From: an uncultured bacterium
GTDB taxonomy: Bacteria > Verrucomicrobiota > Verrucomicrobiia > Limisphaerales > UBA8199
DNA length: 64,000 nt
NCBI GenBank assembly: GCA_963749495.1
Contig: CAVVMW010000023.1
Span: 216,006 to 280,005 of the forward strand
Reading direction: 5' to 3'
Part shown: positions 34,019 through 37,277 of the stretch, one piece after another
How positions within the stretch are numbered: position 1 is the stretch's first letter
How the letters are laid out: the number at the start of each line of letters is the position of its first letter
Translations under genes and position numbers: made by a program
Notes under the pieces: model-generated
The model's database searches: none
What the model saw: only the letters and a program-made list of their open reading frames with translations
What the model was told of the DNA's origin: nothing

Positions 34019-37000
34019 CGAGAACCGTCTCGTTCAGGCTGTCACTCCGGATGGCACGTGGAGTTACGAGTATGATGCGTTTGGCAACCGGGTCGCAACT
34101 GTCCAAAATGGCCAGCGCACCGAATACCTGATCGATCCATTCGGTCTTGGCAACGTGGTGGGTGAATTCAATGGTTCTGGCGGCCTGGTGGCACATTACG
34201 CGCACGGGGGCGGCCTGGTGAGCCGCGCCGATGGCCGAGGTGAGTCTGCATTTTATCACTTTGACGCCCTCGGAAACACCAGCGAGATGACTGACCCTTC
34301 GGGCAATGTGCTCAATCAGTATTCGTACTTGCCTTTTGGCGAACCCTTGAGCGTGGCTGAAGCGGTAGAGAATCCGTTTCGCCACGTCGGGGAATTGGGT
34401 GTCATGCACGAAGGGCACGGTATGGAGTTCGTGCGGGCAAGGTCCTTCGATCCGGCAGCCGGCAGGTTTACGCAGCGGGACCCCATTGGTCTGGCGGGTG
34501 GCATAAACCTCTATCGTTGCACAGGGAATGATCCGGTGAACTCATCGGATCCCAGTGGTCTGATGGTGAACCTTTGGAGCTCTTACGAAACGTTAAGCGG
34601 CCTCATCTTCGAGTCAGGCAGGGCAGTTGATTATCTGGAAGCTCTTCGCCCCTTCCTGAACCAGGGGGCGCGCGAGCAAGTGTATGCCACCTACCTGCGA
34701 CAGGGCTTGCGCCCGGCGCTCCAATTAGCCCTGCGTTTTAACAACGCAGGCGCGATAGAATATGCGGCCAAGGTCCTTGGCATGAACAGTTCTTTGGAGG
34801 CTGAGGCCGCTCGACAAACGGCACTGGCAGCAGAACAGGCTGCCGCTGCTGCAGCGGCAGGGGAGGCGTCGGGTGCCCGCTGGGCTGCAGCCAGAACAAT
34901 AGGCGGCAAAATACTAGGCGGAGCGCTGACGGTTTACACCCTATACCAGGGTGCCCAAGCGTGGTGCCAGGTATTGTCGGTCTCGGGAATGAACGACTTG
35001 GACTACCTCACGGATGGCTGGCTCTTGGGAGTAACACCCGTGGCTCAAGCCGGGACACGGGTCGTTACTTCGCATGACCCCAACGATATCACCGGCCCGG
35101 CCGGTTATGGGCAGCAGTCCTACGTCAGTGTGGATTTCACGATGTATTACCTGATCCAGTTCGCGAACAAGACCAACGCCTCGGCGCCGGCACAAATGGT
35201 GGTGGTGACAAACCAGTTGCCAGCCGCCCTGGATTACGGCACCTTCGAATTAGGGAATATGGGCTTTGGCACTAACGTCGTGACGGTGCCGCCGGGCCGC
35301 ACTTTCTATTCCAGCCGGGTGGATGCGCGCGGCGCGCTGGGCCTTTACGTGGATGTGCAAGGCCAGTTCGATGCGACCAGCGGTTTGGCGGTTTGGACCT
35401 TCACTTCGATCAATCCGGTAACCGGTGGCGAGCCGGAGGACCCCTTGGCCGGGTTTTTGCCGCCGGACACCAACCCTCCGGCCGGCGAAGGCTGGGTGCG
35501 CTATAGCGTGAAGCCGCTCGCGGATACGGCCGACGGTTCGCAGGTCAGCGCCCAGGCCTCGGTTTACTTCGACACCAACCCCCGCATCAACACGCCTACC
35601 ATCACCAACGGCTTGGATAGCCTTACCCCGAGCAGCCATGTTATTCCGCTGCCGCCAACCAGTCCGCCTGCTTTCACCGTGAGTTGGACCGGGCAGGATG
35701 GACAGGGTTCGGGCATTGCCGGGTATGACATTTTTGTGGCCACCAACCAGGCGCCTTATGGCTTGTGGCTCCAAGGCACGACGAACAGCAGCGCTGCCTT
35801 CACCGGTTCGGTGGGCTCCACCTATGCCTTTTACAGCATCGCCACCGATGGAGTGGGACACCGCGAATTGCCACCTGCGGTCGCGGAGGCGCTGACCTTG
35901 GTTGCTGCAACAGCTCCCACCAATGCCCCCTCTCTGCTGGACGGCCCGCTCATGAACGTCGCCCGGATGGGACATTGTATCGGGGAGATGCCGGACGGTT
36001 CAGCCGTGGTTTTCGGGGGCCACGGCCAGGGATTCGTCGCCCTCAATTCCATCGAGATTTGGCGGCCGGCGGCCAACAGTTTCACTCTGCTGCCCACGCC
36101 CTTCACCTTTGATTCCGGCGCCCTGGTGCGTCTGGCCGATGGGCGTTACCTGATGGCCGGCGGGGCGGCCAACCTGGGCGTAGCCCCGGGCTATAATACA
36201 GCCCAGCTTTTCGATCCCGTCGCCGGCACCGTGGCTTCGACGGGCACCAGCATGGTGCGGCCTCGCATGTCTTGCCGCGGGGCCCTGCTCACCAGCGGCA
36301 AAGTGCTCATTGCAGGCGGTTGGTATGACACCGGCAGCGCCACTTATGGAGAACTGTTCGACCCGGCCACCGGGTTATTTGCGGCAACGGGAGCGCTGCG
36401 CACTCCGCGAGCCCAGCCGGTGGTGCTGCCGACCACCGACGGCAAGGCGGTGATCGCCGGCGGGATGGGGGTTTACGGCAGTCCGAGCTTTATCGAGCAG
36501 GTGGAATTATACGATCCGGTCCAAAATTCCTTCTCGGTGTTGACCAATGCCTTGTTCCCGGGTGAGACGGGCTGGGCCTTGAGCCCGGAGGGGGAGCGAA
36601 CCATCCGGGACCAACAGACCGCCGATGGCCGTTATGTCCTCCAGGCTTCTCGGGTCACCAACAATGTTACCGAAGTGGTGCTGGCGATCTTCGATCCCAC
36701 GGCCCGCAAATTCACCAAGCTGGCCGCCAGCCCAGCCTTTACGGAGCCAGTGAGCGCCTGGCTGCCGGTGGTGTCGGCTGCGGAAAATGCAGTGTATTTC
36801 CTCTCCGGCTACAACACCAACAGCAGCGCCAACTTGATCTTCCGCGTTCAGCGGGTGGACCTGGCCACCGGACAGCGGGTGGCCTCGGATGAACTTTCCG
36901 TCACCAACTACTATCCGGGCAGCAGTGCCACGGTGTTATTGAAAGATGGCCGGTTGTTTGTCACGGGCGGCACCACGGCGATCGATTCACAATTCAATTT

Positions 37001-37277
37001 CCAGCCCGTGCAGAACACGTTCTTTGTGGAGGGTTTGCCGGCCGGTTCCGTGGCGGGCGCTCCTCCACGCTTGAATTGGTCGAGGGTGGGCAAAACCATC
37101 ACCCTTTCCTGGCCGTCATCCGCGACTGGTTACATAATTGAACGCACCGGCAATTTAGCCGGCGCTGCCACCTGGAATTCCGTGACCAATTCCCTCACCG
37201 TGGTTGGAGATCAAAACACGGTTACTCTGGACATTGCCGGCCAAACCCTCTTCTTCCGCCTGAAAAAGGCAGAGTAA
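33984..37277 (+). CDS. Giant protein, segment 5 of 5 (RHS core end + 904-aa C-terminal region)
   Basis: Removing the A at 34013 restores ...TYAYDNENRLV. Last YD repeats are YEYDAFGNR and YHFDALGNT. The RHS core terminus is RARSFDPAAGRFTQRDPIGLAGGINLYRCTGNDPVNSSDPSGL (PxxxxDPxGL at 34533-34562). Downstream come an Ala-rich helical stretch, a beta-sandwich module (TSHDPNDITGPAGYG...YYLIQFANK), Kelch-like repeats (35.93-37.0 kb) and an Fn3-like end (LSWPSSATGYIIERT). Confidence 0.85.
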   Translation: MVARPGLMRTDNENRLVQAVTPDGTWSYEYDAFGNRVATVQNGQRTEYLIDPFGLGNVVGEFNGSGGLVAHYAHGGGLVSRADGRGESAFYHFDALGNTSEMTDPSGNVLNQYSYLPFGEPLSVAEAVENPFRHVGELGVMHEGHGMEFVRARSFDPAAGRFTQRDPIGLAGGINLYRCTGNDPVNSSDPSGLMVNLWSSYETLSGLIFESGRAVDYLEALRPFLNQGAREQVYATYLRQGLRPALQLALRFNNAGAIEYAAKVLGMNSSLEAEAARQTALAAEQAAAAAAAGEASGARWAAARTIGGKILGGALTVYTLYQGAQAWCQVLSVSGMNDLDYLTDGWLLGVTPVAQAGTRVVTSHDPNDITGPAGYGQQSYVSVDFTMYYLIQFANKTNASAPAQMVVVTNQLPAALDYGTFELGNMGFGTNVVTVPPGRTFYSSRVDARGALGLYVDVQGQFDATSGLAVWTFTSINPVTGGEPEDPLAGFLPPDTNPPAGEGWVRYSVKPLADTADGSQVSAQASVYFDTNPRINTPTITNGLDSLTPSSHVIPLPPTSPPAFTVSWTGQDGQGSGIAGYDIFVATNQAPYGLWLQGTTNSSAAFTGSVGSTYAFYSIATDGVGHRELPPAVAEALTLVAATAPTNAPSLLDGPLMNVARMGHCIGEMPDGSAVVFGGHGQGFVALNSIEIWRPAANSFTLLPTPFTFDSGALVRLADGRYLMAGGAANLGVAPGYNTAQLFDPVAGTVASTGTSMVRPRMSCRGALLTSGKVLIAGGWYDTGSATYGELFDPATGLFAATGALRTPRAQPVVLPTTDGKAVIAGGMGVYGSPSFIEQVELYDPVQNSFSVLTNALFPGETGWALSPEGERTIRDQQTADGRYVLQASRVTNNVTEVVLAIFDPTARKFTKLAASPAFTEPVSAWLPVVSAAENAVYFLSGYNTNSSANLIFRVQRVDLATGQRVASDELSVTNYYPGSSATVLLKDGRLFVTGGTTAIDSQFNFQPVQNTFFVEGLPAGSVAGAPPRLNWSRVGKTITLSWPSSATGYIIERTGNLAGAATWNSVTNSLTVVGDQNTVTLDIAGQTLFFRLKKAE

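Follow-up and report, generated by a model that had tools for sequence, protein, structure and literature searches.

A putatively self-cleaving RHS cage as a probable internal module of a giant adhesin-like surface protein

To our knowledge, an RHS cage is regarded as a closed container that holds a single small toxin, and the only known exception is the metazoan teneurin, which has domains outside the cage and no longer cleaves itself. The RHS autoprotease consists of two DPxG motifs, 17 to 20 residues apart, and a conserved arginine (PMC8636562, PMC13018210). The cage cavity measures about 28,000 Å3 in Rhs1 (PMC8636562) and about 44,000 Å3 in BiTLP, one of the bacterial teneurin-like proteins (TLPs), whose C-terminal domains average about 15 kDa (PMC13018210). 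Here, we analyze a gene in a stretch of 64,000 nucleotides (nt) from an uncultured bacterium of the Verrucomicrobiota (assembly GCA_963749495.1, contig CAVVMW010000023.1, positions 216,006 to 280,005 of the forward strand), in which an RHS core is followed by 904 further residues. This whole stretch is called the window; all positions are window coordinates, the features described lie on the plus strand unless stated otherwise, and the residue numbers Arg153, Asp166, Asp189, and Leu193 are those of the open reading frame (ORF) at 33984 to 37277. The comparisons reported below suggest that the gene probably encodes a giant adhesin-like surface protein, exported by Sec, which contains a self-cleaving RHS cage as one of its inner modules and carries its C-terminal domains outside the cage.

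The RHS core and the domains behind it

The motif PVNSSDPSGL, which a preliminary description of this DNA had recognized as the end of an RHS core, indeed lies at 34533 to 34562 (34527 to 34562 translates to NDPVNSSDPSGL). It closes a genuine core: the TIGR03696 Rhs_assc_core model, which covers the C-terminal plug and the aspartyl autoprotease, matched residues 115 to 193 (34326 to 34562) with 63.9 bits against a cut-off of 32.5 (E 1.4e-17). The complete RHS/YD-repeat shell spans 32234 to 34562, and Pfam RHS_repeat (PF05593) matched 12 stretches of the ORF at 31601 to 34018 (E 9.6e-75). An AlphaFold model of the repaired shell together with the following spacer and DUF7619 domain reached a predicted template modeling score (pTM) of 0.70, and the predicted local distance difference test (pLDDT) was mostly above 90 in the shell. 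In Foldseek searches, the shell matched the Rhs cores of type VI secretion systems (8qjc, 8qja, and 7q97; E about 1e-50 to 1e-52), the bacterial teneurin-like protein 9IFO (E 1e-46), metazoan teneurins (E 1e-35 to 1e-41), and TcB-TcC (E about 1e-30 to 1e-32). The window protein is a member of the RHS/YD-shell family.

The aspartyl-protease residues of the C-terminal plug, whose integrity had been left as a point to check, are all present. Arg153 is encoded at 34440 to 34442, Asp166 belongs to the first DPxG motif (DPIGL, 34479 to 34493), and Asp189 to the second (within PVNSSDPSGL, 34533 to 34562), with 18 residues between DPIGL and DPSGL. In an alignment of 64 clade sequences, the Arg, Asp, and Asp columns are at least 90% conserved. 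Judged from its sequence and model, the cage looks functional, and cleavage would be expected after Leu193, between 34562 and 34563.

Exactly 904 residues follow the motif in frame (34563 to 37274), as previously counted. They amount to 94.8 kDa, or about 115,000 Å3 at 1.21 Å3 per Da, which bears out the earlier statement that the region is too large for the usual RHS cage. Structure prediction and Foldseek searches of the residues after DPSGL resolved a spacer, a DUF7619 domain, an Fn3-like domain, a Kelch propeller, and a terminal sandwich. The AlphaFold2 model of the 904 residues, built from a 58-sequence alignment, had a mean pLDDT of 84, and 733 of the 904 residues form four autonomous extracellular domains that are confidently folded in it.

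The beta-sandwich that begins with TSHDPNDITGP at 35067 opens a match to Pfam DUF7619 (PF24595; 61.9 bits against 27). This Ig-like domain with a CnaA-like fold spans 35067 to 35627, that is, residues 172 to 355 counted from DPSGL, with a pLDDT above 90. We found only one paper that mentions the family; in it, DUF7619 is a CnaA-like domain for which an intramolecular Lys-Asp-Asn isopeptide is predicted (PMC12617251). In the window domain, this triad is replaced by Ile, Asn, and Ala. Lys, Asp, and Asn are present in 69 of 103 aligned DUF7619 modules, and in the rest the three residues are lost together. The loss, seen in about 30% of the modules, is correlated, with Lys changed to Ile or Leu, Asp to Asn, Gln, Glu, or His, and Asn to Ala, and modules without the triad are enriched among RHS-linked proteins. 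The Asp-Pro-Asn at the opening of the domain (S-x-D-P-N-D-K-x-G-P; 35076 to 35090 in the window) is kept in 98 to 102 of the 103 modules and is therefore better conserved than the triad itself.

Immediately behind DUF7619 lies an Fn3-like beta-sandwich (35628 to 35912; residues 356 to 450 after DPSGL; pLDDT above 90) with the motif W-x-G-x-D...SGI..Y.I.V, which is conserved in the 103 modules. This domain gave no Pfam match, always comes next after DUF7619, and is additional to the Fn3-like domain that had been described at the protein end. The DUF7619-Fn3 module occurs in about 100 proteins at 35 to 55% identity, behind N-terminal domains that are unrelated to each other (beta-helix, SBBP, HYR, Big, VCBS, lipase-like, and others) and ahead of tails of the dockerin, DUF4214, type IX secretion system (T9SS), or sorting-signal-like kind.

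The Kelch-like blades noticed in the preliminary description make up a seven-bladed beta-propeller at 35925 to about 37037 (residues 455 to 825 after DPSGL; pLDDT above 90). Pfam reported Kelch_6 (45 bits against 25.3), Kelch_1 (33.4 bits against 20.1), and Kelch_4, seven blades are seen in the AlphaFold model, and Foldseek matched the propeller to galactose oxidases, which were the best fold matches, and to Keap1-type Kelch proteins (E about 1e-15 to 1e-16). There was no equivalog-level match to the radical copper oxidases (galactose oxidase/GlxA), as NF052501 has a cut-off of 800 bits and scored 25.6. In homologues, whether stand-alone or fused, the propeller positions His10, His26, Cys110, Trp126, Tyr127, Glu136, and Arg155 (propeller taken as 35946 to 37040) are invariant or nearly so, in the motifs ARMGH, GGHG, GGWYD, and TYGE; they could form a metal or ligand site, and the tip may then be an enzyme rather than a lectin-like binder.

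The protein ends in a small beta-sandwich of about 70 residues (37065 to 37274, with the stop codon to 37277; residues 835 to 904 after DPSGL; pLDDT 79 to 91) that terminates in FFRLKKAE. It corresponds to the terminal Fn3-like domain proposed earlier and gave no family match in the Pfam scan. The sandwich (W.S..…FFRLKK) is duplicated in the homologues P0002 and P0124, and relatives from Bacteroidota and Ignavibacteria carry a T9SS sorting domain at the corresponding position; the sandwich might serve for sorting or anchoring in a phylum-specific way. Kelch propeller and terminal sandwich are also common as stand-alone secreted proteins, in which a signal peptide precedes the propeller, and are elsewhere fused to other domains.

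The giant gene and its frame

The ORF at 33984 to 37277 is only the last fragment of a much larger gene, its apparent start being a false one created by a frameshift at 34013. The whole gene spans 24861 to 37277 (12.4 kb, about 4,140 codons) and is split by four 1-nt frameshifts into five pieces in frames 3, 2, 1, 2, and 3. Because the intact 3,789-residue homologue P0240 aligns colinearly with 24876 to 35894 across these frames, we read the five pieces as a single gene. P0240, which was retrieved with the spacer sequence as the query, contains beta-helix, RHS, TEN_YD-shell, and DUF7619 matches in Pfam, as well as DPSGL and a homologous spacer. The frameshifts lie near 26753, 27250, 31620, and 34013 (intervals 26750 to 26756, 27235 to 27268, 31613 to 31629, and 34013). 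At the last of these, an extra A (tac-A-gataac) falls inside a YD repeat, TWTYAY/DNENRLVQAV, through which both P0002 and P0240 read.

The N terminus carries a putative Sec signal peptide, MRRILTQALGLVPLVLFWSWCPMLAPFDARA (24861 to 24953), read from the translation; that of P0240 is likewise hydrophobic. It is followed by five tandem 825-nt repeats (25030 to 28908), which encode Gly-rich units of 275 residues (GGGGSGGG...NGGAGGG), are 62 to 93% identical, and start 825, 824, 836, and 807 or 825 nt apart. Their period exceeds the limit of Tandem Repeats Finder, and they came from another repeat search. The off-period spacings of 824 and 836 nt fall at two of the four frameshifts. Directly ahead of the shell lies a pre-shell region (31601 to 32215), a CARDB-like beta domain with three helices (AlphaFold, q6-51), for which Pfam gave no match. 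From N to C terminus, the parts are the signal peptide, the five 275-residue repeats, a beta-helix, the CARDB-like/helical region, the RHS shell, and the spacer, and then DUF7619, the Fn3-like domain, the seven-bladed Kelch propeller, and the terminal beta-sandwich.

Both ends of this frame occur without RHS. The giant genes of two homologous loci, L002 and L003, match the window from 24918 to 31608 and from 34998 to 37268 at 46 to 55% identity but have no RHS, and their proteins keep the DUF7619-Fn3-Kelch-sandwich order at the C terminus (tblastn, 53 to 55% identity). As these alignments show, the last four domains form a ready-made extracellular module that is found without RHS in homologous giant proteins. 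In the slot that corresponds to 31.6 to 35.0 kb of the window, L002 and L003 have about 350 residues of other sequence, consisting of a CARDB-like segment and a domain containing Cys, His, and Asp. By eye, this domain of about 170 residues (L003, about 7,950 to 8,600; L002, about 9,000 to 9,900; …QNCVETADDM…SWHTSVLL…WVLDDY…) resembles a papain- or transglutaminase-like fold; that of L003 gave no Pfam match and only marginal CD109 matches in a PDB search. Lipase-like (GHSHG) or NlpC/P60-like motifs occupy the same slot in other DUF7619 proteins.

The pre-shell region is kept upstream of the shells across this RHS clade (blastp), and in the non-RHS proteins P0040 and P0073 it stands only 40 to 70 residues before DUF7619. 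Because the two nearly abut in these proteins, the simplest reading of the alignments is that the RHS part and the spacer are a cassette within a surface-protein frame that existed before, with one part of this frame on either side. The protein tip is exchangeable as well, because P0240, which shares the window architecture up to the Fn3-like domain, continues with an unrelated tail of about 380 residues; this tail had no Pfam match.

The frameshifts are probably consensus indels of a long-read assembly rather than decay. We read them in this way because a frameshift also breaks a TPR repeat of an unrelated gene on the minus strand (about 42,950 to 43,050; …GVGNHAR/LEAFRKAVEV…) and because the homologous long-read loci L002, L003, L035, and L036 are broken likewise. 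Suspicious overlaps were also seen between adjacent ORFs at 112/1373, 8301/9866/10627, 15802/16803, and 42939/45034. At the 5' end of the giant gene, a 336-residue protein with an M23 peptidase and a PKD domain (23725 to 24735) overlaps by 4 nt with the ORF, started by GTG, that belongs to this gene; the representative of its 90%-identity cluster has 496 residues, and the window copy may be truncated. In locus L001 (1 to 210), stop codons are followed, about 100 nt from the end of the contig, by an abrupt start of the P0002 RHS frame, so that P0002 starts at approximately the last 350 or so shell residues; it may be an orphan RHS-tail fragment or the product of an assembly break.

The spacer and the readings of the cage

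The preliminary description had left two possibilities for the long region behind the motif, either a new kind of RHS cargo or an RHS shell used as a structural module of an adhesin. As a cargo, the whole 904 residues were rejected, both on volume and because the same domains occur without RHS in L002 and L003. A compact terminal toxin would have about 10 to 30 kDa, and what follows the motif is 904 residues of 94.8 kDa. Pfam and NCBIfam scans gave no toxin family, in agreement with the earlier failure to recognize a toxin motif, and reported no delivery domain of the PAAR/VgrG, LXG/WXG, or TcB-partner kind; at the N terminus, the signal peptide is succeeded instead by the Gly-rich repeats and then a beta-helix. 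Nor does a small immunity-like ORF follow the stop codon. The next ORF, only 38 nt away, encodes 967 residues (37315 to 40218; 937 from the Met that precedes its signal peptide), has no family match, and does not look like an immunity gene. No conserved small downstream gene was found in L001, L002, or L034 to L036, and the ORFs that follow in L035 and L036 are not conserved between these loci.

The region behind the motif is also not polymorphic in the manner of a toxin tip. P0002, the closest RHS homologue, is about 80% identical both before and after DPSGL, with only the middle of the spacer more divergent, and the same C-terminal region occurs in non-RHS giant proteins, the outcome that had been named in advance as refuting a new cargo. 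Displacement of the C terminus is thus not seen against P0002, while in the wider clade the spacer alone is hypervariable, which leaves the comparison ambiguous there. The idea of a structural module in an adhesin held up in outline, with the qualification that the conserved autoprotease residues probably make the cage more than an inert scaffold.

The spacer itself (34563 to 35066) was modeled with a pLDDT of 27 to 65 and had no Pfam or PDB match. Its first 166 residues have a mass of 17.5 kDa (about 21,000 Å3), an Ala content of 20%, and a pI of 5.4. Residues 1 to 171 after DPSGL have the same low pLDDT, with helices confined to residues 7 to 117 (five short ones and one of 41 residues, 77 to 117) and disorder from 113 to 171 (about 55 residues). 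Of the Ala-rich, possibly membrane-active helical stretch described earlier, the Ala-richness stands and the helicity stands at low confidence. A transmembrane anchor was rejected, as the highest 19-residue Kyte-Doolittle mean is 0.87. For a compact toxin at 34.56 to 35.05 kb, the outcome was a segment of cargo-like size and position without a known toxin family in Pfam at E up to 1; PDB sequences gave no match at E up to 10. Among 1.84 billion representatives searched exhaustively with HMMER, P0240 was the sole relative of the spacer (E 9e-6). A weak "Gp13-like capsid" match in P0240 falls on the Ala-rich helix and was treated as compositional. Since the entire region has 94.8 kDa and the spacer 17.5 kDa, set against the published cavities, the spacer is the only segment of the 904 residues that could occupy the cage.

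The arrangement recurs. DUF7619 lies downstream in about 38 of the 120 nearest RHS shells, and several matches whose tails look short come from truncated or frameshifted versions of this architecture; of the nearest RHS relatives, most either have DUF7619 or are truncated forms of proteins that have it. In 37 proteins, mostly from metagenome assemblies, it was possible to place both landmarks, the few taxon labels being Planctomycetota or cyanobacteria. Their spacers measure 47 to 235 residues (median 153; about 100 to 190 in most members) and are mutually unrelated in sequence, while both flanks are conserved. RHS-spacer-DUF7619 is thereby seen, at the level of sequence, as a recurrent architecture of the clade; our searches of the literature retrieved no account that connects RHS with DUF7619.

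We hypothesize that the Arg153/Asp166/Asp189 autoprotease would cut after Leu193 inside the cage and that the 17.5-kDa spacer alone would stay in the lumen. The chain would then leave the cage and place the Ig-Fn3-Kelch array outside, which corresponds to the topology of metazoan teneurins with cleavage retained. After cleavage, nothing but the trapped spacer would hold an N-terminal fragment of about 3,400 residues and a C-terminal one of about 95 kDa together, and the overall role may be surface binding or adhesion, not delivery of a large toxin. Several points weigh against this proposal. The solved shell of a bacterial teneurin-like protein has no opening (PMC13018210). The spacer was modeled adjoining the shell at a pLDDT below 45, and we infer both its lumenal placement and the exit of the chain, just as cleavage is read from motifs alone. 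The propeller has no known adhesive ligand, and its conserved His, Cys, Trp, and Tyr residues could mean an enzyme. Finally, with its four frameshifts, the giant gene could be a decaying pseudogene in this organism.

The 166-residue spacer might instead be a genuine small RHS cargo, membrane-active or enzymatic, that is encapsulated and set free in the way of the C-terminal domains of other RHS proteins. In that case, the Ig-Fn3-Kelch array would be an external handle by which a target is bound or the protein anchored, and it might assist in pulling the cargo out. The spacer mass of 17.5 kDa and the spacer position fit a cargo role, given the average of about 15 kDa for TLP C-terminal domains (PMC13018210), and so do the conserved autoprotease and the unrelated spacers between conserved flanks in the 37 clade proteins. 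A hydrophobic helix with a Kyte-Doolittle mean of at least 1.6 is present in 11 of the 37 spacers. Two spacers look like genuine domains: that of P0304 (residues 977 to 1110) shows a His…Cys pattern and has an above-threshold match to Lnb_N/DUF4105 (25.1 bits against 22.2), and that of P0268 (residues 884 to 1029) weakly matches glycine-zipper families (E 0.06 to 0.08). Hydrophobic, membrane-permeabilizing RHS cargoes are also known, namely the BiTLP C-terminal domain (PMC13018210) and, reportedly, Tse5. This evidence is clade-level, however, and weak for the window spacer, which has no segment of transmembrane grade, matches neither a toxin family nor a solved structure, and is predicted at low confidence. 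Several clade spacers are of low complexity and rich in Pro and Gly (for example, P0013, P0050, and P0257), no small gene comes next in the window, L001, or L034, the ORFs that follow in L035 and L036 differ from each other, and a cargo covalently tied to a 78-kDa external array is without precedent. We therefore consider a small cargo rather unlikely for this protein.

More doubtful still is the view of the shell as a structural scaffold only, like that of metazoan teneurins, uncleaved and essentially empty, with the spacer as no more than a linker. Metazoan teneurins do show that YD shells can be adhesion scaffolds with C-terminal domains outside, adhesin-like domains flank the window shell on both sides, and there is neither an immunity gene nor delivery machinery. 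Against this stand the Arg, Asp, and Asp residues and both DPxGL motifs, which teneurins have lost but which the window protein retains intact and the clade conserves to at least 90%, and the length of the spacer, held at about 100 to 190 residues in most members, as a simple linker would not need. An artefact, whether an assembly chimera or a dead pseudogene joining an RHS fragment to an unrelated adhesin tail, is very improbable: the four frameshifts in 12.4 kb and the abrupt start of the P0002 RHS in L001 would suit it, but the RHS-spacer-DUF7619-Fn3 order recurs in the intact P0240, in P0002, and in 35 further proteins from independent samples, and frameshifts typical of consensus indels are equally found in the unrelated TPR gene and in the long-read loci.

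To return to the self-cleaving cage inside a surface protein, this sizeable bacterial clade breaks the pattern of the sealed container: behind a cage predicted to cleave itself come a constrained, hypervariable spacer of about 150 residues and large folded domains of surface proteins. A cage would thus have another use, in processing or coupling within giant adhesin-like proteins, and the clade offers a bacterial model for the exit of a chain from a YD shell. For annotation, a long region behind PxxxxDPxGL should not be read as a toxin, and "RHS repeat-associated core" proteins with DUF7619 should be regarded as surface proteins. The window protein is of moderate interest singly and of higher interest as part of its clade. 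Tentatively, the clade may even be an undescribed bacterial RHS class that combines teneurin topology with a retained autoprotease and in which, after self-cleavage, cage and array are joined only by a hypervariable lumenal segment of about 15 kDa, a non-covalent "ball-in-cage" joint. If that were true, a pull on the external array, for instance upon target binding by the Kelch tip, could draw the lumenal segment out of the cage, with the result that the giant N-terminal part is shed or a small membrane-active or enzymatic cargo is exposed, and the class would be a bacterial precedent for the step from encapsulating RHS toxins to teneurin-like adhesion scaffolds.

Comparison with known systems

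The classical Rhs toxins (RhsA, 7Q97; Rhs1, 7PQ5) and TcB-TcC provide the best matches, in structure and in sequence, to the shell and core and share the PxxxxDPxGL end. The window protein differs from them in that it has no PAAR, VgrG, TcB partner, compact toxin, or immunity gene, and 904 residues continue behind the motif. A compact terminal toxin, an immunity gene, and a delivery domain define Rhs polymorphic toxin systems, and the window protein has none of these features.

With the bacterial TLPs (BiTLP, PDB 9IFO; PMC13018210), the window protein shares a Sec-type signal, large adhesin-like N-terminal domains, a YD/RHS shell, which is surface-displayed, a DPxG-x18-DPxG autoprotease with the conserved Arg, and a segment of about 15 to 17 kDa directly after the cleavage site; the sequence match has an E of 1e-13. 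Neither an FN-plug nor an NHL domain was detected in it, by Pfam on the ORFs at 27175 and 31601 or in the model, and because of this it fails the TLP definition. TLPs also end after the small C-terminal domain, inside a shell without an opening, and the immunity gene comes next (PMC13018210), whereas the window protein continues for 738 further residues of folded domains, which by their volume must be placed outside the cage, and has no immunity gene.

Metazoan teneurins have in common with the window protein a YD shell that is internal to a large adhesion protein and folded C-terminal domains that must lie outside, so that the chain has to exit. They are type II membrane proteins, unlike the window protein, and their external domains are ABD and Tox-GHH in place of DUF7619, Fn3, Kelch, and the beta-sandwich. 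Their autoprotease motif is lost and they remain uncleaved (PMC13018210), while the motif in the window protein is intact and conserved. The DUF7619-Fn3 module, in turn, is shared with the DUF7619 surface proteins (PMC12617251), from which the window protein is distinguished by the loss of the isopeptide triad and by the RHS cage that precedes the module.

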